A DNA stretch of 64,000 nucleotides from Casimicrobium sp. (GTDB lineage: Bacteria > Pseudomonadota > Gammaproteobacteria > Burkholderiales > Casimicrobiaceae), in the NCBI GenBank assembly GCA_040079845.1, contig JBEBJR010000001.1, positions 128,386 to 192,385 on the forward strand, read 5' to 3'. This document shows, piece after piece, positions 4,586 to 59,082 of this stretch. A model generated the notes under the pieces. It was not told where the DNA came from and did not search any database. It saw only the letters and a program-made list of their open reading frames with translations. Position 1 is the first letter of the stretch. Every line of letters begins with the position of its first letter. A program made the translations under genes and the position numbers.

Positions 4586-6493
4586 CTACTTGCGCACTCG
4601 CAGTATCCCCGCAAAGTACGCCGCCAGTTCGTCGCGTGCAGTCAGCGGCAGGATGTGCCCCACGTATTGATCTGGCCGAACGATAACGATGCATCCCGCC
4701 GCACGGTCGATGCCGCGCATCTCGAAAATGTCTTCGCCTCGCTTGTGGTCGGCGCAGAAAACTTTCTCGTAGTCGCACAGCCCGTAGCGCCCTATGGATG
4801 GGCGAAGGAGCGTGGGCATGGCCGTGAAGTCGAGCGCGTGCGACGCCTGTTGGAAAACCGCGCGGGTGTCGATCACGGCGTCGATGTCTTCGCCTGACGC
4901 GGTGTGGCGGCGCAGTGGGGAGGCTGCGTCCCGTTCGAGCCAATCGCATAGCGTTGCGACTGCGCCACCTGCGTGACCGGCATCGCTGGCGGGGGCGAAG
5001 ATGAAGAGGCGGAACCGAGCGTCGGCGTCGATGCAATGGCCGAGTTGCATGGGTTTGGCGTCGGCTAGGCGAACGACGGGGGCGGAATGCAGGCGTTTGC
5101 CAATATCGAAGCCGGTGGCGAGGTGTTGCCAATCCGACGCGCCGGTTAGTGCGCTGGGTTCGTACTGAATCGTAAGTCCACAGGTGAACGGGAGGTTGTT
5201 GACGAACTCGCGCGCGACGCGCGGCAAGCCGTCGGTGGCGTCGTCTTCGGCCCGAGCGCCGACGACGCGCGCCCATTTGTGGTCAAACTCCACGAGGCCT
5301 TTGGCTGCGGCGCGCCGCTCCCCGGAATAGCTGTGCAACAGGGCAGGGTCTGCACGTCCAGTGAGCACCGAGACTAGTTTCCAGCCGAGGTTAAAGGTGT
5401 CGCCCATCGAAACGTTCATGCCTTGGCCCGCCTTCGGGCTGTGCGTGTGGCAGGCGTCACCCGCGAGCATCACGCGCGGCGCACGAGTGGCGAGCTGATC
5501 GCTCGGCACATCGTCGAACTTGTCGGTCAGGCGATGGCCTATTTCATAGATGGACCACCAGACGACCTCTTTAACGTCGAGTTTAAACGGACTGAAAATG
5601 CGTTGCGCTTTGGCGATGATGTCCTCGGCACGCATCCCACGCTCTCCGACGCGCTCGTGTTCGCCAAGGTTGTCCATCTCCACATACAGGCGAACCAAGT
5701 GCCCACCCTCGCGCGGAAGCACCATCAAAATGCCGTCGGTCTGCGAGCGAACGAAGGACTTCATGCGCCAATCGGGAAAGTCTGTGACCGCGAGCAGGTC
5801 GATCACGCCCCAGGCCTGATGCGCCGCATCGCCATGCAGCGCGCCGCCGATGGCGCTACGCACATTCGAGCGCGCGCCATCACAGCCGATGACGTAGTTT
5901 GCCCGTACCGTCGAGCGCTGTCCTTCGCGGCCGGGTGCGGTGTGTTCGAGCGTGACCGTCACTGGATATTCAGTCGCGGTGCTGTCGATTTTTAAGTCGA
6001 GCACTTTCAGACCATAGTCCGGCTCCAACCGGGTCGGCGAGTTACGCATGATGTCGAGAAACATGTCGTGTACGCGCGCTTGATTGATGAGCACATGCGG
6101 CATTTCGGAGGTGCCATCGGGCACGTCTTGCACGCGCGCGACGCGACTAAGCGCAGCGTCGGTGCCGGGCGCCCAAAACGTTGTTTCGTTAATCCACACT
6201 GATTCGCGCATGAACTTTTCGGCAAAGCCGAACGCCTGAAACATCTCCATCGATCGCACACTGATGCCATCGGCTTGACCCTTTTCCATCGGTCCGAGCT
6301 TGGGTTCGACGACCAGCGTTCGGATGCTCGGTACGCGCGCCAGCTGCGCCGCGAGACACAGGCCAGCGGGCCCGGTGCCGGCGATCAGTACATCTACCGT
6401 TTCGGGAAGCGGGTCGCATGCGCGGCGATGCCCCGGAGCGGCCGGTTGAACATCAGGGTCGCCAGGATTAAATCCGTTGATGTGGTATTGCAT
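4586..6493 (-). CDS. FAD-dependent aromatic monooxygenase (phenol 2-monooxygenase / 3-hydroxybenzoate 4-monooxygenase type)
   Basis: Motifs DVLIAGTGPAGL (GxGxxG) and LAGDACHTHSPKAGQGMN, plus a long C-terminal thioredoxin-like region. Start moved to ATG 6491-6493 (AGGAGA 4 nt upstream), because the ORF-track extension to 6610 runs through a REP hairpin. Confidence 0.8.
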   Translation of the reverse strand: MQYHINGFNPGDPDVQPAAPGHRRACDPLPETVDVLIAGTGPAGLCLAAQLARVPSIRTLVVEPKLGPMEKGQADGISVRSMEMFQAFGFAEKFMRESVWINETTFWAPGTDAALSRVARVQDVPDGTSEMPHVLINQARVHDMFLDIMRNSPTRLEPDYGLKVLDLKIDSTATEYPVTVTLEHTAPGREGQRSTVRANYVIGCDGARSNVRSAIGGALHGDAAHQAWGVIDLLAVTDFPDWRMKSFVRSQTDGILMVLPREGGHLVRLYVEMDNLGEHERVGERGMRAEDIIAKAQRIFSPFKLDVKEVVWWSIYEIGHRLTDKFDDVPSDQLATRAPRVMLAGDACHTHSPKAGQGMNVSMGDTFNLGWKLVSVLTGRADPALLHSYSGERRAAAKGLVEFDHKWARVVGARAEDDATDGLPRVAREFVNNLPFTCGLTIQYEPSALTGASDWQHLATGFDIGKRLHSAPVVRLADAKPMQLGHCIDADARFRLFIFAPASDAGHAGGAVATLCDWLERDAASPLRRHTASGEDIDAVIDTRAVFQQASHALDFTAMPTLLRPSIGRYGLCDYEKVFCADHKRGEDIFEMRGIDRAAGCIVIVRPDQYVGHILPLTARDELAAYFAGILRVRK

Positions 6494-16448: not shown

Positions 16449-16513
16449 CTCGCAACCGCCTTCGTTGCGGAGCATGGCGCGCTGGCGCTTTGCTTTGCAA
16501 CGGGACTTCATGC

Positions 16514-17047
16514 ATGAAAATTCTCTATCGTCGAGCCACGCTCGAAGATGCGTCTTCGGTTGCGCGCGTGCACTGTGCGAGTTGGCGTAGTACGTATCCA
16601 GGCCTCATCCCCGACCACGTGATTGACGCGTGGGCAGACGTTGAGCGACGCACCGACGGCTGGCGCAGAATCATCGCCGAGCGCCCCGAAACCCTTTGGC
16701 TCGCGACGCGCGACGGTGAGGTCATCGGTTTCGCCGATGGCGGCGTCGCGCGCGAACCCAACGATGGCGTAGCGGGGCAATTGTTTGGCATTTATCTGCT
16801 TGCCTCGGCGCAGCGCAACGGCGTTGGTCGCGAGCTTGTCTCGCACGTGTTTTCGGACTTGCATCGATGGGGTTTCGGAAGCGCTCGCGTAGAGGTACTC
16901 AAAGGCAACCTTCCGGCAATTCGCTTCTACGAAAAGCTCGGCGCGCGTTTCGTTCGCGAGGCACCGTTCGAGATGATGGGCGACGCCATGTTTGAACTCG
17001 TTTACGTGTGGGACGAATTGCCTGACTTGACCGGTTGGCCCGCGTAG
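16514..17047 (+). CDS. GNAT-family N-acetyltransferase
   Basis: 177 aa with the acetyl-CoA motif QRNGVGRELV. Start moved to ATG 16514. Confidence 0.75.
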   Translation: MKILYRRATLEDASSVARVHCASWRSTYPGLIPDHVIDAWADVERRTDGWRRIIAERPETLWLATRDGEVIGFADGGVAREPNDGVAGQLFGIYLLASAQRNGVGRELVSHVFSDLHRWGFGSARVEVLKGNLPAIRFYEKLGARFVREAPFEMMGDAMFELVYVWDELPDLTGWPA

Positions 17048-17099
17048 GCGCGCGCGCGCAAGGACACTAAGGTGATCGCTTGCCGACGCTGCGGTACAT

Positions 17100-17129
17100 T
17101 TGTAATAGTTCCTTAATCGTGCTTATAAT
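17100..17129 (+). promoter_or_regulatory. Possible promoter TTGTAA-18-TATAAT for the NLR-like gene
   Basis: Lies in an AT-rich patch between the GNAT stop and the AGGAG/ATG at 17183/17193. Confidence 0.3.
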
Positions 17130-17192
17130 TCCTGTAACGAGCAGGGCGTGCAGCCATTGCGCGTCCCGTCTACGCTCTACGCAGGAGTACAA

Positions 17193-20100
17193 ATGATCAC
17201 GCTTAAATCGCTCCCGGCCATCGCACAATTAGAGGCGGTGCTCACTAAAAACCTGCTCGCAGGCGACGATCCGGCGCGATGCAAAGCGCTAATCAAGGTG
17301 TTGAAAGCGTCAACGGATGGGCGGCTACGCTACGACGCAGTGCTCGCGGCAGTTTTCCCTGATGGTCACCAACCTGCAAATCCGGGCAACGTCTTCACCA
17401 AGTTTCGCCAACGAGTCGGAGCGGCTGCGCAAGAAGCCGGCATCGCCTTCGAGATGCAGGTAACAGGCAGCAAACGCTCTGGTGCCGCGAGCATGTGGCT
17501 TACTTTTCACGGCGACGATGCGGCAAACGGGCAATTGCCGATGGAGGCGAGTCCGACGCACGACCCCAAAGTTTATGCACCACAGATGGCTCGCCGCGAT
17601 GTCAAGCGCATTTTCCTTAGCAACGCCGACTTGGACGGCGAGTTGGTAGCGCAATTCTTGAAGTGTCTTCGAACATCAATGGCGAGCGATGGAGATTCGC
17701 GAATTCATGAATGGGCCAGTTCCATTTTTTGGCATCGCGTCGATTTGACAGACAACCAGCAGCAACAGGCGATTCATCGAGCCATCGACGATTGTGACGT
17801 CGGGTTAATTCTGTTCTCTCGAAATCTCATCGCTAGCAGTTTTGTGCGCGGGGAAGAGCTGCCGCGGTTCCAACCTAGCAAATGGTCTGACGGCGATCCG
17901 CGAGCAAGGCCCGCCATAGCTGTGCAATTGACGAATGAGCCAATCGACCGACTACACAGCGCTGTTGGACACAAAGAATTCACGTACAGAAACTGCGTTG
18001 ACGACCACTCGGAAAAGCGCTGTAGCTTTGAGCTCGGCAACAGCACACAACGTAACCGCCTCTGCGACCAAATTGTCGAGAAACTAAAGGAATACCTGCT
18101 ACCAAGCGACGACGGCGGCGACTCGGTGTCGCCTAGCCTTCGCAAGCGTCGGCAAAAAGTCAACACTCCGTCGGAGCACTTGCCGTTGCCGTGCGCGGAT
18201 GACCGCTACAACGAGGTGCAATACGATGCGACGGCCGTCGCGCGTGCTACAGCAATCCGCCGTGCGGGGGGGCACAACGTGGCGACAAGCGGTGAAGGCG
18301 CCCCAGACGCAAACACCGCCGTATCGAAATCGGCGTCCACTGACGTTCCCGCGCTTGAATATCTGTCGACCTGGGCGACCGAGGCGAACAGATCTCGCTG
18401 GTTTGCCGTTCTCGGCGAACTCGGAATGGGAAAGACGTTTCTATGCCGCATGCTCGCAAATCGCTTGCGCAATACTCCCGATGCGCCGCGACCAATTTAC
18501 GTGGATTTGCGCAGCAGCGCCACCGACGCAGCAAACGGCGCGCGACTCACGCTGGAACTTATTCTCCAGAATTCGCTGCGTGTTGACTACAGCTCTCCCA
18601 AGTCGTTTACGCCTGAAACGTTAATTGACGGAGTTCGAAAGCGCGGGGATGTGATCATCTTTGACGGGCTCGACGAGCTCTCCGTGCACTTGAAAGACGA
18701 GGGCACTCGCGCGCTCATCGCTGAACTGTTAAGCGTCTTGCCGCCGACGCTGGAAGCGTCGACAAATCGCTCAAGTGAAGAATCGCCGACGGCGGCCAAG
18801 CAGATCGACGGCAAGCGTCGTGCAAGCTCGTCGAAGGCCGAGAAACTGGGCAAGGTCGTAATTTCCTGCCGCACACACTACTTTCCGGACATCACAAGTC
18901 AGAACGCATTTCTCTTGCAAGCACATCGCGGAAAGGCCGACGGCGAAGATGTGGAAGCTTTCACGTTGCTGCCGTTTACAGAAGAAGCGATTCGTCGCTA
19001 TTTCCGCAACGCCCTCGGCACCGACAAGGCTGATAGCGCGTTCGAGTTGATTTCGGAAGTTCACAACCTCCGAGAGTTGGCCGAACGGCCATATCTACTG
19101 AGTCTCATCACCGGGCAAATCGGCAAGCTTGAAGTGATGCGTCAACGCGGCGAAACGGTCAATGCCGCAAGCCTGTACGGTTTGTTCGCTGACGACTGGT
19201 TGCAACGCGACACTGGCAAACACGAATTCGAGCTTGCGCACAAGCGGAGCGTCATGCAGGCGCTTGCTGCGGAGATGTGGCGTGAACGTGCACGGCAGTG
19301 GTCATGGGAGCGCATGGAGCGATGGCTCAACGAATTCATGTTGTCGGTGCCTGGATGGGTGTTTCGCTACGCGGCGAAGGCCGATGTTTTGGCGAAGGAT
19401 TTGCGCACAGCCACGTTTATCGTGCGCGTCGGTGAAGATAGTTTTCGCTTTGCGCACACGTCGCTGCAAGAATATTTCTTGTCCGGCTATTTGTTAGACG
19501 CGTTGACCGCGCGTGAACTTTCGAAGTGGGACAACCTTGTTCCTTCGGACGAAACGTTCGATTTCATGTGGCAGCGATGGCAACTCATGGCGAACGGCGT
19601 TCAACGCACTGTTGTCGACGGGCTGCACGATCTGCTCGCTCGCGCAAAGCCCGCGCGCGGTGCGGTCGCGCCGCTGATCGCGTGGCAACTCTACGTGTTG
19701 AGGCAAGCCGAGAATCCGGCGGCCATTGTGAATCTCGACGGTGCAGACGTACGCGGTTGGCGGTTGGCGGGTACCGCGGATAGGCCGATGCGGTTGCCTA
19801 ATCTGACGCTGCGTGATGCTGTCGCAAAAGCGCTCACCGTAAGCCATGTTGACGCCGTGGCTGTCGATGCAAGCCGCGCCCACCTTGTACAGGCTCGGTT
19901 TGGCGATTGCGATTTTCAGCGCGCCGATATCCGCGATGCGGACCTACGTGGATCGACGTGGCGAAATGTTGACCTTCGCGACGCTCGCGTTGACGGCGGC
20001 ATGCTGGCCGGGGCGCTGTTCGACCAATGTGATGTTTCGGGAATTTCGATCGACACTAGCCACCCATCGTCGGCTGGTACTTTCGTTTTGCTCAACCCGA

Positions 20101-22067
20101 AACACTCTCCACCCATAACGACGTTTGAACGGGTCGACGTTGCGTGCGACCGTCGAGCGGTTGTTGCCGCGGGCCACACCCATTCGGTCTCGTGCGTCGC
20201 GTTCAGCGCGGACGGTCAGACGCTGGCGAGTGGTTCGTGGGACACGACGGTGAAGCTCTGGGACGTAGCGACGGGGCGCGAAAAGTTCAGCTTGGCCGGG
20301 CACACCGATTGGGTTTTGTCCGTCGCGTTCAGCGCGGATGGCCAGACACTGGCGAGTGGATCGTGCGACAACACGGTGAAGCTCTGGGACGTCATGACGG
20401 GGCGCGAGAAGCTCAGTATGACCGGGCACTGGGATTGGGGTTCGTCCGTCGCGTTCAGCGCGGACGGTCAGACGCTGGCGAGCGGTTCGGGCGACCGCAC
20501 GGTCAAGCTGTGGGATGTGGCGACCGGGCGCGAAAAGCTCAGCTTGGCCGGGCACTCCGATTCGGTCTGGTCCGTCGCGTTCAGCGCGGACGGTCAGACG
20601 CTGTCGAGCGGTTCGGGCGACCGCACGATCAAGCTCTGGGACGTGGCGACGGGGCGCGAAAAGCTCAGCTTGGCCGGGCACACCGATTCGGTCAGGTCCG
20701 TCGCGTTCAGCGCGGACGGGCAGACGCTGGCGAGCGGTTCGGAGGACAACACAGTCAAGCTCTGGGACGTGGCGACGGGGCGGGAAAAGCTCAGCTTGGC
20801 CGAGCACACCGATTCGGTCAGGTCCGTCGCGTTCAGCGCGGACGGGCAGACGCTGGCGAGTGGTTCGGCGGACAAGACGGTTAAGCTCTGGGATGCGGCG
20901 ACGGGGCGCGAAAAGCTCAGCTTGGCGGGGCGCAGAAATTCGATCTCGTCCGTCGCGTTCAGCGCCGACCGTCGGACGCTGGCGTGCGGATCGTGGGACA
21001 ACACAGTGAAGGTCTGGGACTTGGCATCGGGACGCGAACTGCTCAGCTTGGTGGGGCACCAATCTTTTGTCTGGTCAATCGCGTTTAGCGTGGACGGTCA
21101 GACTCTGGCGAGCGGATCGTTGGACTCCACGGTGAAGCTCTGGGACGTAGCGACGGGGCGCGAAAAGCTCAGCTTGGCCGGGCACACCCATTCGGTCTCG
21201 TGCGTCGCGTTCAGCGCGGACGGTCAGACGCTGGCGAGTGGTTCGTGGGACACGACGGTGAAGCTCTGGGACGTAGCGACGGGGCGCGAAAAGTTCAGCT
21301 TGGCCGGGCACACCGATTGGGTTTTGTCCGTCGCGTTCAGCGCGGATGGCCAGACACTGGCGAGTGGATCGTGCGACAACACGGTGAAGCTCTGGGACGT
21401 CATGACGGGGCGCGAGAAGCTCAGTATGACCGGGCACTGGGATTGGGGTTCGTCCGTCGCGTTCAGCGCGGACGGTCAGACGCTGGCGAGCGGTTCGGAG
21501 GACAAGACGGTCAAGCTCTGGGACGTGGCGACTGGGCGCGTGAAGCGCGCCTTGGCGGGGCATACCAAATCGGTCTCGTGCGTCGCGTTCAGCGCGGACG
21601 GCCAGACACTGGCGAGCGGTTCTTCGGACATGACAGTGAAACTCTGGGATGTGGCGACGGGGCGCGAAAAGCTGCGCTTGGCAGGGCATCAGGATTTGGT
21701 CACGTCGGTCGCGTTCAGCGCGGACGGGCAGACGCTGGCTAGCGGTTCGACGGACAACTCGGTCAAACTCTGGGATGTGTCGACCGGGTGGGCTCGTCGT
21801 TCCTTTGTGTCCTTGCCGCGCGGCGAGTGGGTCACGCTGGATGAATCGGTGTCGGACGCGCGTGAACGCGGGCTGCCGGTGATCGCAGCGAGCAACCAAG
21901 CGCCACACTACTTGCGTCAGCAGTGGCGAAATCCCGCGACGGGAAAGCTCGCATGGATGCCGTGGGCACCTCCGGGGTCGGAGCTTTGGGTGAGCGTCGG
22001 AGGTGGAAATGACCCGAAGCACGCGTTGTTTGCTGCCGTAAATCTACACTCTGAACATGACCGATAA
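17193..22067 (+). CDS. STAND/NLR-like protein: unknown N-terminal domain - TIR-like - NACHT NTPase - pentapeptide repeats - 13 WD40 repeats
   Basis: 1,624 codons. AGGAG lies 5 nt upstream of ATG 17193; the ORF-track start 17148 is a GTG. Domain motifs are listed in the sub-features below. Confidence 0.88.
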   Translation: MITLKSLPAIAQLEAVLTKNLLAGDDPARCKALIKVLKASTDGRLRYDAVLAAVFPDGHQPANPGNVFTKFRQRVGAAAQEAGIAFEMQVTGSKRSGAASMWLTFHGDDAANGQLPMEASPTHDPKVYAPQMARRDVKRIFLSNADLDGELVAQFLKCLRTSMASDGDSRIHEWASSIFWHRVDLTDNQQQQAIHRAIDDCDVGLILFSRNLIASSFVRGEELPRFQPSKWSDGDPRARPAIAVQLTNEPIDRLHSAVGHKEFTYRNCVDDHSEKRCSFELGNSTQRNRLCDQIVEKLKEYLLPSDDGGDSVSPSLRKRRQKVNTPSEHLPLPCADDRYNEVQYDATAVARATAIRRAGGHNVATSGEGAPDANTAVSKSASTDVPALEYLSTWATEANRSRWFAVLGELGMGKTFLCRMLANRLRNTPDAPRPIYVDLRSSATDAANGARLTLELILQNSLRVDYSSPKSFTPETLIDGVRKRGDVIIFDGLDELSVHLKDEGTRALIAELLSVLPPTLEASTNRSSEESPTAAKQIDGKRRASSSKAEKLGKVVISCRTHYFPDITSQNAFLLQAHRGKADGEDVEAFTLLPFTEEAIRRYFRNALGTDKADSAFELISEVHNLRELAERPYLLSLITGQIGKLEVMRQRGETVNAASLYGLFADDWLQRDTGKHEFELAHKRSVMQALAAEMWRERARQWSWERMERWLNEFMLSVPGWVFRYAAKADVLAKDLRTATFIVRVGEDSFRFAHTSLQEYFLSGYLLDALTARELSKWDNLVPSDETFDFMWQRWQLMANGVQRTVVDGLHDLLARAKPARGAVAPLIAWQLYVLRQAENPAAIVNLDGADVRGWRLAGTADRPMRLPNLTLRDAVAKALTVSHVDAVAVDASRAHLVQARFGDCDFQRADIRDADLRGSTWRNVDLRDARVDGGMLAGALFDQCDVSGISIDTSHPSSAGTFVLLNPKHSPPITTFERVDVACDRRAVVAAGHTHSVSCVAFSADGQTLASGSWDTTVKLWDVATGREKFSLAGHTDWVLSVAFSADGQTLASGSCDNTVKLWDVMTGREKLSMTGHWDWGSSVAFSADGQTLASGSGDRTVKLWDVATGREKLSLAGHSDSVWSVAFSADGQTLSSGSGDRTIKLWDVATGREKLSLAGHTDSVRSVAFSADGQTLASGSEDNTVKLWDVATGREKLSLAEHTDSVRSVAFSADGQTLASGSADKTVKLWDAATGREKLSLAGRRNSISSVAFSADRRTLACGSWDNTVKVWDLASGRELLSLVGHQSFVWSIAFSVDGQTLASGSLDSTVKLWDVATGREKLSLAGHTHSVSCVAFSADGQTLASGSWDTTVKLWDVATGREKFSLAGHTDWVLSVAFSADGQTLASGSCDNTVKLWDVMTGREKLSMTGHWDWGSSVAFSADGQTLASGSEDKTVKLWDVATGRVKRALAGHTKSVSCVAFSADGQTLASGSSDMTVKLWDVATGREKLRLAGHQDLVTSVAFSADGQTLASGSTDNSVKLWDVSTGWARRSFVSLPRGEWVTLDESVSDARERGLPVIAASNQAPHYLRQQWRNPATGKLAWMPWAPPGSELWVSVGGGNDPKHALFAAVNLHSEHDR
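17601..18097 (+). other. TIR-like domain of the NLR-like protein
   Basis: Contains RIFLSNADLDGELVAQFL (beta-A strand pattern) and AIHRAIDDCDVGLILFSRNLIASSFVRGEELPRF (the hhhhhS.n..S....E segment with a candidate catalytic Glu). Confidence 0.55.
18350..19500 (+). other. NACHT/STAND NTPase module
   Basis: Walker A GELGMGKT at 18414-18437, Walker B VIIFDGLDEL at 18651-18680, and a winged-helix-like FAHTSLQEYF near 19450. Confidence 0.8.
19731..20054 (+). other. Pentapeptide-repeat segment (~20 pentads)
   Basis: ...AHLVQ ARFGD CDFQR ADIRD ADLRG STWRN VDLRD ARVDG GMLAG ALFDQ CDVSG... Confidence 0.8.
20175..20490 (+). repeat. 316-nt perfect direct repeat, copy 1 (WD units 1-3a)
   Basis: Base-for-base identical to 21183-21498. 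The offset is 1008 nt, i.e. 8 WD units. Confidence 0.95.
21183..21498 (+). repeat. 316-nt perfect direct repeat, copy 2 (WD units 9-11a)
   Basis: Identical to 20175-20490. Confidence 0.95.
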
Positions 22068-30398: not shown

Positions 30399-32432
30399 AT
30401 GCATTTTTACGCGGTCGTCGCGCTGTCGGCATTTCTTCTCTTTCTCGTTCAGCCGTTGATCGCCAAGCAAATCCTGCCGTGGTTTGGTGGCAGCTCGGCC
30501 GTGTGGACCACGTGCATGCTGTTCTTTCAGGGCGCGCTGCTGCTGGGCTACGCGTACTCTGACGTGACGCCACGATTCTTTGGGCCAAAGCGACAGCCGC
30601 GCGTTCACATTGTGTTGGGGCTGCTGGCACTGTTGACGTTGCCGATCATCGCGCCGGAGAGCTGGAAGCCTACGGGCGGCGAGGAGCCGGTGTCGCGGAT
30701 TTTGATGTTGCTGGCGGTGACGATCGGCTTGCCGTACGTGCTGATTTCCACGACGAGCCCGCTGATCCAGAGTTACTTCGCGCGACTCAATCCGGGGCGT
30801 GATCCTTATCGATTGTTTGCGCTATCGAACGCGGCGTCGCTCACGGCGTTGGTCGCGTATCCGTTGGTGATTGAGCCGTTCGTGGGTACGCGCGTGCAGG
30901 CGTACGGCTGGTCTGCGTTGTTCGCGGTGTTTGTGTTGCTGCTCGCGGCGTTGGCATGGCGCGTGAGCCGCACGGAGACGGTATCGGTCGATGTCGGCGA
31001 AGCCGCGCCGGCGGTGGAGGTTTCGGCGAGCCAACAATTACGTTGGATCGCGTGGTCGGCGGCGGGCTCGATGTTGCTGCTCGCGGTGTCGAATCACATC
31101 ACTCAGAACGTGGCGAGCGTGCCGCTCTTATGGGTGCTGCCGTTGACGCTTTACTTGTTGACGTTCATTCTCACGTTCGACGGCACGGGCTGGTATCGGC
31201 GTGGCCGCTACTTTGCGCCGTTTGTGATCGCCATCGGCTTGATGTGTTTCTTGTTGCTGAGTTCGCAGTTTCAGTTCGATCTCGTTGTGCAAACGAGTGT
31301 GTTCTGTGCGGGATTGTTCGTGGTGTGCATGGTGTGTCACGGCGAGCTCGTGCTCGCGAAGCCCGCGCCGGCGCAGCTCACGCGGTTTTATTTGTTGGTG
31401 TCGATTGGTGGTGCGTTGGGTGCGTTACTCGTTAGCGTGGTCGCGCCATTGGTATTTACGACGTATCTGGAGACCGCTGTTGCGCTGTTGTTCGCGGCGG
31501 TTCTGTATGTGCCCGTCGCGCGTGCGTTGCGGCCGTGGTTGCGTTGGCTGGCGGTGGCGCTCGCGCTGGGCGTGATCGGTACAGGCGCCTGGTCGGTGCG
31601 CGACGAACATAAAAACACGTTGGAACTTTCGCGCAATTTTTACGGCGTGTTGAAGGTCAAGGCGTATGACGAGCGTGATAGCGAAAATTACCTCGTGCGC
31701 CTCGTTCACGGCGCGATCTTGCATGGCGAGCAATATCCGCATGAGAAGTGGCGCAAAGAGCCGACGACCTACTACACGCCGACGTCGGGCTTTGGACGCG
31801 CGGTTAACCTGCAGCGCGAGCTTGCGCCGCGCAGCAACAACACGCAGCGTATCGGCATGATTGGGCTCGGAGTGGGCACAGTCGCGGCGTATTGCCGTGA
31901 AGGCGATATTTGTCGTATCTACGAAATCAACGTGGAAGTGGAGCGCTTGGCGCGCAAGTACTTCAGCTATCTATCGGATAGCCGGGCGAAGCTTGATGTC
32001 GTGATCGGGGATGCGCGTTTGTCGCTTGAGCGCGAGGCGAGCAACCAGTTCAATGTGCTCGCGGTGGATGCGTTTTCTGGGGACTCCATTCCGATGCACT
32101 TGATCACGCGCGAAGCGGTGGCGGCGTTCGTGAAGCAAGTGCAACGCGATGGCATCGTGGCGTTTCACGTTTCAAACCGGTTCCTTGAATTGCCACCTGT
32201 ACTTGCAGAAATCGCAGCGAAAGAGGGCCTAGCCGGAGTGGTCGTGGAAGACCCGTCACAATCGAACAACAGCCTGCATTCGGCGAGCACATGGGTGCTA
32301 CTGGCGCGTTCAGCCGACGTGTTCAAGTCGATGGACGCCGCAACGGCGAAACCGCTAGAGCGCACGCCCGGCGCGCCGCTGTGGACGGATGACTTCAATA
32401 ACTTGTTGTCTGTGGTGAAGTGGAAGCGCTAA
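30399..32432 (+). CDS. Fused polytopic membrane domain + spermidine synthase-like (class I MTase fold) protein
   Basis: 677 aa. The first ~400 aa are multi-TM. The C-terminus has IGLGVGT ... AVDAFSGDSIPMHL. Confidence 0.75.
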   Translation: MHFYAVVALSAFLLFLVQPLIAKQILPWFGGSSAVWTTCMLFFQGALLLGYAYSDVTPRFFGPKRQPRVHIVLGLLALLTLPIIAPESWKPTGGEEPVSRILMLLAVTIGLPYVLISTTSPLIQSYFARLNPGRDPYRLFALSNAASLTALVAYPLVIEPFVGTRVQAYGWSALFAVFVLLLAALAWRVSRTETVSVDVGEAAPAVEVSASQQLRWIAWSAAGSMLLLAVSNHITQNVASVPLLWVLPLTLYLLTFILTFDGTGWYRRGRYFAPFVIAIGLMCFLLLSSQFQFDLVVQTSVFCAGLFVVCMVCHGELVLAKPAPAQLTRFYLLVSIGGALGALLVSVVAPLVFTTYLETAVALLFAAVLYVPVARALRPWLRWLAVALALGVIGTGAWSVRDEHKNTLELSRNFYGVLKVKAYDERDSENYLVRLVHGAILHGEQYPHEKWRKEPTTYYTPTSGFGRAVNLQRELAPRSNNTQRIGMIGLGVGTVAAYCREGDICRIYEINVEVERLARKYFSYLSDSRAKLDVVIGDARLSLEREASNQFNVLAVDAFSGDSIPMHLITREAVAAFVKQVQRDGIVAFHVSNRFLELPPVLAEIAAKEGLAGVVVEDPSQSNNSLHSASTWVLLARSADVFKSMDAATAKPLERTPGAPLWTDDFNNLLSVVKWKR

Positions 32433-58988: not shown

Positions 58989-59082
58989 TGGTGCCCGGGA
59001 CGGGAATCGAACCCGTACGCCCGCTATTCACGAAAGCGGCGGATTTTAAGTCCGCTGTGTCTACCAATTCCACCACCCGGGC
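58989..59082 (-). tRNA. tRNA-Leu (anticodon UAA), class II with a long variable arm and encoded CCA
   Basis: Reverse complement reads GCCCGGG-UG-GUGGAAUUGGUAGACAC-A-GCGGA-CU-UAA-AA-UCCGC-(22-nt variable region)-ACGGGUUCGAUUCCCGU-CCCGGGC-ACCA. Total 94 nt. Confidence 0.85.

Follow-up and report, generated by a model that had tools for sequence, protein, structure and literature searches.

The question raised by this locus is whether a single, very long open reading frame (ORF), lying between housekeeping-type genes in a 64,000-nt stretch of Casimicrobium sp. DNA (contig JBEBJR010000001.1; the whole stretch is referred to below as the window, and all positions are counted in window coordinates), encodes an intact immune receptor of the NLR type. 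Translation of the window confirmed one uninterrupted ORF of 1,624 codons without internal stops at positions 17193–22067 of the plus strand, as the initial annotation of this DNA had described, and the product was identical to the protein MEQ1593577.1, already deposited at NCBI on a 458-kb contig. The gene is thus real and intact, and our analysis makes it rather likely that it encodes a stand-alone, NLR-related conflict sensor of the bNACHT type, which is triggered by a ligand, oligomerizes through its NACHT module and consumes NAD+. The modules of the protein follow one another in a fixed order, namely an NNH6 head, a swappable NAD+- or nucleotide-targeting effector (a TIR domain here), NACHT, a five-coil beta-helix, a WD40 array and a short tail. 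The proposed layout of effector, NACHT and repeat sensor was supported by a TIR fold, a NACHT fold and WD40 repeats, and the stand-alone status of the gene was supported as well.

Since a whole-protein Pfam scan was swamped by WD40 families, Pfam was rerun segment by segment. Among the families that the initial annotation had led us to expect, NACHT, Pentapeptide and WD40 scored above their cut-offs, whereas TIR_2 (PF13676) reached 13.8 bits against a cut-off of 28 (E 0.085) and was sub-threshold. The segment scan also identified residues 19–117 as PF22737 NNH6 (E 1e-17, 64.8 bits against a gathering cut-off of 27), so that the first ~135 residues, previously described as lacking any recognized motif, now begin with an NNH6 domain (aa 1–117, 17193–17543, +). 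An AlphaFold2 model computed from 13 sequences gave the NNH6 region a predicted local distance difference test score (pLDDT) of 80–93. The predicted helices and strands (H26-38, E44-46, H47-54, H64-81, E86-91 and E102-107) follow the order a1-b1-a2-a3-b2-b3, which looks like that of a winged helix as judged from secondary structure.

The TIR assignment was further examined by profile and structure searches, both of which returned TIR domains. A 13-member family profile of the region (aa 136–305, 17598–18107, +) matched PdTIR (3h16) at E 3.6e-9, as well as 7uxr and BtpA 4lzp (E 3.6e-9 to 3e-7) and AbTIR 7uwg/8g83 (~2e-7), with plant and animal TIRs ranking next. The top Foldseek matches of the AlphaFold2 model were the TIR domains of TLR1, AbTir, RUN1 and BtTir, with a probability of about 1 and a target-normalized TM-score of 0.68 for AbTir; moreover, homologs such as P0002 do carry PF13676. 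The region can thus be assigned confidently, at the level of the predicted fold, as a divergent TIR domain. Its putative catalytic residue is E222 (codon 17856–17858, +; SSFVRGE-E-LPRF), the second Glu of VRGEE, which was aligned in the profile alignments with the Glu of QKELDGL in PdTIR and of EYELNGM in BtTir (7uxr). Glu occupies this position in 122 of 147 family TIRs, and the catalytic-position Glu and Ser209 are kept in this protein and in 83–93% of the family. Two features depart from the known pattern: the beta-A motif reads FLSNAD in place of the FVSYA of the family, and the residue four before the Glu is Val (F217-V218-R219-G220-E221-E222), whereas it is Trp in PdTIR and BtpA. Family TIRs have Tyr or Phe five residues ahead of the Glu. 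Owing to the altered beta-A motif and the Val in place of Trp, catalytic competence is not assured. The TIR domain is followed by a linker (aa 306–385, 18108–18347, +) that was modeled with low confidence (pLDDT <50 over aa 307–384) and is poorly conserved, with 18–32% identity between orthologs.

The NACHT NTPase module (aa 386–800, 18348–19592, +) comprises nucleotide-binding, helical and winged-helix parts. Its Walker A (GELGMGKT, aa 408–415, 18414–18437, +) satisfies the P-loop pattern GxxxxGK[ST], and its Walker B (VIIFDGLDEL, aa 487–496, 18651–18680, +) carries DGLDE at aa 491–495; both were found at the coordinates assigned to them before. DGLDE conforms to D[GAS]hDE, the Walker B signature that defines NACHT (Kibby et al., preprint 10.1101/2022.07.19.500537), and its columns were invariant in our family alignment (A2). 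PF05729 NACHT scored 27.2 bits against a cut-off of 26.7, a marginal pass, and precomputed PF05729 matches were present in homologs. A single-sequence PDB search with the NACHT region gave only noise, and a profile search with A2 was flooded by WD40 and pentapeptide matches; NACHT was confirmed by a fold search instead. A second AlphaFold2 model, covering aa 383–1000 (pLDDT 80.5, predicted template modeling score 0.77), matched NLRP9, NLRC4, NOD2, NLRP3 and NAIP5 in Foldseek at E 1e-11 to 1e-7, and further matches included plant NLRs, Avs4 (E 3e-5) and Cdc6/ORC.

Downstream of NACHT, the ~20 pentapeptide repeats noted earlier were recovered as ~21 pentads forming about five coils at aa ~847–960 (19731–20072, +). 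The region scored above the Pfam cut-offs for PF13599 (49.1 bits against 38), PF00805 (37.5 against 20.2) and PF13576. Short strands at regular spacing in the model of aa 383–1000 describe a regular solenoid, and solved pentapeptide proteins in the PDB were matched by a profile search (E 1e-29 to 1e-9) and also by the fold search. Among 166 relatives the module is near-constant, with a median length of 105 aa and a net charge of about -2. We considered the module as an integrated decoy that mimics DNA in the manner of Qnr/MfpA; this is disfavored by the near-neutral charge and the constant length, and a role as a rigid spacer or lever fits better.

How widespread this arrangement is was addressed by an exhaustive HMMER search with aa 1–850, in which 2,442 cluster representatives (clusters at 50% identity) were detected at E<=1e-3, 1,334 at E<=1e-10 and 666 at E<=1e-30. 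An architecture census of 182 retrieved proteins, scored with HMMs built from this family and in agreement with the precomputed Pfam domains of the homologs, found NNH6-TIR-NACHT-pentapeptide-WD40 in the same order in 113. Relatives came from, among others, Thiothrix, Planctomycetota, Pseudonocardia, Bifidobacteriaceae and Pseudenhygromyxa. Because the order is shared by 113 of the 182 relatives, the pentapeptide module and the extra N-terminal domain are the rule and not an oddity. The initial annotation could match neither feature to a characterized system, but their novelty is not supported: NNH6 is in Pfam, the module order recurs, and the domains already listed for bacterial NACHT proteins include NNH, TIR, PNPase, pentapeptide repeats and beta-propellers (10.1101/2022.07.19.500537). 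At the place of the TIR, 12 of the 182 relatives carry a PNP_UDP_1 nucleoside phosphorylase, one more has both TIR and PNP, and in a few NNH6 is directly followed by NACHT. Two proteins of the last kind, P0092 and P0145, have only ~31–34 aa between NNH6 and NACHT and no effector domain between them. This hints that NNH6 may itself be an output or adaptor module. A further homolog, P0004, has an additional N-terminal region of ~520 aa (aa 1–527) ahead of NNH6, for which the precomputed list shows no Pfam domain and which may result from fusion of two genes or from an incorrectly called start.

These comparisons bear on the possibility that the TIR is catalytically dead and serves only as a scaffold or in oligomerization, the output being delivered by NNH6 as an adaptor or as a winged-helix-like binder of nucleic acid or protein. 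Such a protein would account for the sub-threshold TIR_2 score, the altered beta-A motif and the Val in place of Trp, as well as for a family in which NNH6 is constant and the effector is a TIR, a PNP or absent (P0092, P0145); the predicted a1-b1-a2-a3-b2-b3 order of NNH6 is also in its favor. However, this protein and most of the family keep both Ser209 and the Glu at the catalytic position, and the fold is confidently that of a TIR. That some relatives have PNPase, likewise an enzyme directed at nucleotides, where the TIR would be speaks for an output that is enzymatic. We therefore regard a dead TIR as rather unlikely and prefer an enzymatically active effector.

We next consider the distribution of the gene. 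Its neighbors are those named in the initial annotation, leuA and a GNAT acetyltransferase gene upstream and an Ldh_2 oxidoreductase gene downstream. The Ldh_2 product shares 98% identity with its counterpart in a Burkholderiales metagenome-assembled genome (MAG) and 97% with the one in a Casimicrobium MAG. In a comparison of ~20 related contigs sharing leuA…Ldh_2, the NLR gene was found between the two genes in only three, the window, L001 and L009, and hence it is not a uniformly syntenic core gene. In L002 (the nearest relative, with the 98% identical Ldh_2), L008, L013 and L017, leuA and Ldh_2 are adjacent, 70–110 bp apart, and in L026 GNAT alone lies between them. DNA homology to L002, in which the leuA-Ldh_2 gap is ~94–112 bp, ends at 16449 and picks up at 22044, delimiting an accessory segment of 16450–22043 (no strand assigned) that holds the GNAT and NLR-like genes and extends from the leuA stop to 13 nt before the Ldh_2 start. 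The leuA…Ldh_2 interval (16449–22057) is thus a flexible hot spot in Casimicrobium-like genomes, empty in some of them. Among the three orthologs, identity was 66–71% for NACHT, 50% for TIR, 46–61% for NNH6 and 34–45% for the pentapeptide module, in contrast to about 88% for the flanking leuA and Ldh_2. The NLR gene is accessory and evolves faster than its flanking genes.

The GNAT gene was rejected as a partner of the NLR gene, being present without it in L003, L005, L016, L020 and L026 and absent from L009, where the NLR gene is present. The GC content of 0.55–0.60 (0.62–0.68 in the WD40 array) was unremarkable as a signal of transfer, and no integrase, tRNA or obvious direct repeats were seen at the insertion boundaries, where no dedicated repeat search was run. 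Other cargo at leuA…Ldh_2 included a GST gene and PIN-domain genes (L009; L010, one paired with a Phd/YefM antitoxin). In L003 the interval held a gene for an 863-aa RCC1-repeat protein, in L005 a 4.6-kb stretch of small ORFs whose products look secreted, and in L020 an ORF resembling a flavin monooxygenase.

The C-terminal sensor is formed by 13 head-to-tail, uninterrupted WD40 units of 42 aa (aa 993–1538, 20169–21806, +), in line with the earlier count. They were detected as 13 stretches by Pfam WD40 (E 5e-148) and as a 126-bp period with 12.8 copies and an 82% match by Tandem Repeats Finder. The mean pairwise identity of the units is 0.76 at the amino acid level, to be compared with a near-identity criterion of ~70% or more for high-internal-conservation (HIC) repeats, although the published threshold uses another similarity coefficient. 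The units vary mainly at positions 4, 5, 6, 8, 24 and 26, which flank the invariant Val7 and Asp25. The between-unit ratio of nonsynonymous to synonymous divergence (dN/dS) was ~3 at these six codons and 0.22 at the other 36 (dS ~0.3–0.5), a contrast that is inflated because the six sites were picked as variable after the data had been seen. Units 1–2.5 (20169–20490, +) and units 9–11.5 (21177–21498, +), which lie 1,008 bp apart, differ at just 2 of 322 nt. The two orthologs have 5 units each, against 13 here, and each array has its own unit consensus, although all are short-read metagenome assemblies in which repeat counts are open to mis-assembly. The gene-specific consensus, the unequal counts and the near-identical duplication, taken together, suggest that the array evolves in concert and has recently undergone unequal recombination, short-read assembly error being a possible contributor. 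A JGI metagenome scan for repeat polymorphism found no close alleles. The best PDB sequence match to the start of the array was 2YMU, a cyanobacterial WD40 propeller that likewise has near-identical 14-fold repeats; unlike the protein described here, it is a propeller fragment only and uninformative on the NLR context.

The array is followed by an 86-aa tail, close to the ~85 aa first reported, of which the final ~22 residues are a read-through extension (21999–22067, +). The remainder (aa 1539–1602, 21807–21998, +) proved, upon alignment of 123 family tails, to be a divergent version of the consensus hLP.g..A..d....ril.aspeAWRwLgW...G..rrlPaE.fGplP. In these 123 relatives (e.g., P0008, P0013 and P0014), the WD40 array leads into a ~60-aa motif, AWRWLGW…G…RLPAExFGxLP. 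No Pfam match was obtained for the tail here or for two canonical homolog tails, and the tail may be a degenerate 14th blade. The extension is missing from the orthologs, which end in ...LWVKYQ* and ...LWVKYRN*. The stop codon of the NLR gene lies 11 nt inside the coding sequence of Ldh_2, which begins at 22057. Since the ancestral sequence upstream of Ldh_2 has been reduced to 13 nt, Ldh_2 may now need read-through transcription or a promoter within the NLR gene.

The array and the tail are also where a third explanation has to be weighed, namely that the gene is decaying or is in part an assembly artefact, so that mis-assembly or recent damage would explain the length of the array, its 322-bp duplication and the read-through at the C-terminus, and the protein would not function. 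The source is a metagenome-assembled genome, units 1–2.5 and 9–11.5 are near-identical, the orthologs have 5 units and not 13, and the stop codon has shifted into Ldh_2, all of which would be expected of such a gene. On the other hand, the 4.9-kb frame is unbroken with all catalytic motifs intact, and a between-unit dS of about 0.47 together with low dN outside the variable sites indicates purifying selection on the array; moreover, 13 or 14 detectable units are common in the family, with a mode of 14. Decay or artefact is therefore very unlikely, and we continue to treat the gene as intact.

The pattern of WD40 variability has a precedent in fungi. In the Podospora HET-E/NWD repeats, positive selection acts on codons 7, 9, 25 and 27, which surround the conserved codons 8 and 26 and lie on the propeller's top face (PMC1805685). 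The variability seen here, with its apparently diversifying positions, reproduces this pattern, and by likeness the variable residues would be placed on the top face. The resemblance to the HNWD/NWD NLRs of Podospora (HET-E, HET-D and HET-R) extends to a NACHT joined to a 42-aa WD40 array of high internal conservation, variable pairs around a conserved residue in the d-a loop and the b-c turn, an apparently unstable repeat number and a gene-specific unit consensus, and fungal NLR repertoires likewise include PNP_UDP and TIR heads. In contrast to the HNWD/NWD proteins, the protein has an NNH6 and TIR head and not a HET domain, a beta-helix and a conserved tail, and a bacterial host with no known cell fusion. 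NLRs with HIC repeats have already been reported outside fungi in a 2026 study, a figure legend of which names NNH6, TIR-2 and PNP-UDP heads (PMC13449251).

This likeness raises the possibility that the protein acts in self/non-self or kin recognition (allorecognition-like), or in some other non-antiviral signaling, with its WD40 array reading a polymorphic protein of the host or of a neighbor, as HET-E and HET-D do for HET-C. The conserved units with variable pairs flanking a conserved Val and Asp are as in the Podospora codons (PMC1805685), HIC-repeat NLRs with NNH6, TIR or PNP heads are known beyond fungi according to the legend cited above, and the locus has no defense-island context. Nevertheless, this lineage is not known to undergo cell fusion, no gene near the locus is a candidate for such a polymorphic partner, and all bacterial NACHT proteins tested so far were scored on phage defense (10.1101/2022.07.19.500537). 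Such a non-antiviral role thus appears unlikely, and a conflict sensor is preferred.

How such a sensor could operate was drawn by analogy with Apaf-1, animal NLRs, plant TIR-NLR resistosomes and bacterial Avs/bNACHT proteins. At rest, the WD40 and beta-helix region would keep NACHT ADP-bound and monomeric. A ligand, probably either a protein from an invader such as a phage or a host protein that has been perturbed, would bind the top face of the WD40 propeller through the hypervariable residues, and binding would relieve autoinhibition, allowing nucleotide exchange and oligomerization of NACHT. The oligomer would cluster the TIR domains into active NADase sites around E222, and depletion of NAD+, or a nucleotide made by the TIR, would lead to growth arrest or death before the invader could spread. 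We infer an immune function and NAD+ consumption by the TIR domain from these likenesses, by which a ligand, oligomerization, NADase activity and an anti-phage phenotype would likewise be expected. Diverse bacterial NACHT proteins are anti-phage and require the Walker A Lys; the same study assigns beta-propellers and pentapeptide repeats to the sensors of antigen-receptor type and counts TIR and PNPase among the effectors that target NAD+ (10.1101/2022.07.19.500537).

The comparison with these systems revealed both shared and distinct features. Like the bNACHT proteins (10.1101/2022.07.19.500537), the protein combines a NACHT bearing Walker A and D[GAS]hDE with a tripartite layout of effector, NACHT and sensor in a single gene; unlike them, it was not matched by the PADLOC bNACHT models. 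The tested bNACHT set, as given in the legend of Figure S3 of that preprint, includes LRR, HEAT, REase, TIR, TM, NNH1 and NCH1, and the legend lists no pentapeptide or beta-propeller sensor. With the plant TIR-NLR resistosomes (RPP1 and ROQ1) and AbTir, structures of which were among the sequence and fold matches, it has in common a TIR fold with the catalytic-position Glu, coupled to a STAND NTPase and a sensor made of repeats, and a working model of oligomerization-induced NADase activity. It differs from the plant proteins in having NACHT and not NB-ARC, WD40 and not LRR, and an additional NNH6 ahead of the TIR, and from several bacterial TIRs in the Val that replaces their Trp four before the Glu. 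Apaf-1 and Avs are also STAND ATPases in which a C-terminal sensor lifts autoinhibition upon ligand binding. Apaf-1 has tandem WD40 propellers, as well as an AP-ATPase with a CARD adaptor, which sets it apart. As for Avs, Avs4 was matched in Foldseek (E 3e-5), whereas characterized Avs sensors are mainly TPR-like and no PADLOC Avs model was matched.

Several observations count against the assignment of an antiviral, NAD+-consuming sensor. Besides the sub-threshold TIR_2 score, the two departures of the TIR from known motifs, the post hoc choice of the six WD40 codons and the uncertainty of repeat counts in short-read metagenome bins, they include the outcome of a PADLOC-DB v2 search, suggested by the initial annotation, which gave no defense-family assignment: no bNACHT or Avs model was matched, and only a WD40-driven HEAT-ARM_XIII match and P-loop noise were returned. 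No defense island was apparent, the rest of the window being metabolic or housekeeping in character and two relatives on long contigs lying likewise among metabolic genes. A tblastn search of plasmid and phage collections found no relatives, and in IMG/VR the family profile gave only pentapeptide-only matches and one NACHT-like match of 23% identity. In the literature, no reported phenotype was found for any member of the five-module family. The single NACHT match on a viral contig, at 5001–6440 of L030 (IMG/VR UViG_2855110455_000001) and covering profile positions 172–579, could represent a distantly related STAND gene carried by a provirus.

The protein does not represent a new category of system, since its layout is common, its vocabulary and logic are published and the protein itself is already in GenBank. 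It is, however, a clean natural single-gene bacterial NLR with hallmarks of eukaryotic immune receptors, namely an accessory locus, effector swapping and a fast-evolving sensor of near-identical repeats. A more tentative reading, to which we give limited credence, is that it stands for a bNACHT clade that is very large (at least 666 clusters; five modules in 113 of the 182 relatives) and experimentally untouched, and in which a constant frame surrounds two fast-changing parts. The frame would consist of the NNH6 winged-helix-like head, the ~105-aa beta-helix and the Pfam-less tail with AWRWLGW…PAExFGxLP, and the changing parts would be the swappable TIR/PNPase effector and the concertedly evolving WD40 array. 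If the array gains specificities by unequal recombination, it would be a bacterial counterpart of the repeat-shuffling HET-E/NWD receptors of fungi. The activation of NLRs might also involve the beta-helix and the tail as regulators of a new kind. The questions raised are whether WD40-sensor bNACHTs defend against phages, whether their TIR uses NAD+, what the beta-helix, NNH6 and tail do, and whether repeat shuffling retunes specificity in bacteria as proposed for fungi. As no family member appears to have been tested, one construct could address several of these questions.

With regard to expression, a longer GTG start is available at 17148. The ATG at 17193 is preferred because it is preceded, 5 nt upstream, by a Shine-Dalgarno-like AGGAG (17183–17187, +, read from the sequence) and because the resulting N-terminus aligns with the first residues of the orthologs. 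The promoter-like TTGTAA-18-TATAAT noted previously (17100–17129, +) agrees with the sigma-70 consensus at 10 of 12 positions, with 0.3 such sites expected in shuffled sequences, and is a candidate promoter by consensus match.

Within the WD40 array, two antisense ORFs of 372 aa (19944–21062, -) and 315 aa (21075–22022, -) were seen, as in the L009 ortholog; they look like by-products of GC-rich repeats rather than genes. Elsewhere, the window contains no paralogs of the NLR gene. A 677-aa ORF at 30399–32432 (+) has no Pfam match at E<=1e-5, and the only tRNA gene of the window, tRNA-Leu(UAA) at 58989–59082 (-), lies far from the NLR locus and is unrelated to its insertion.

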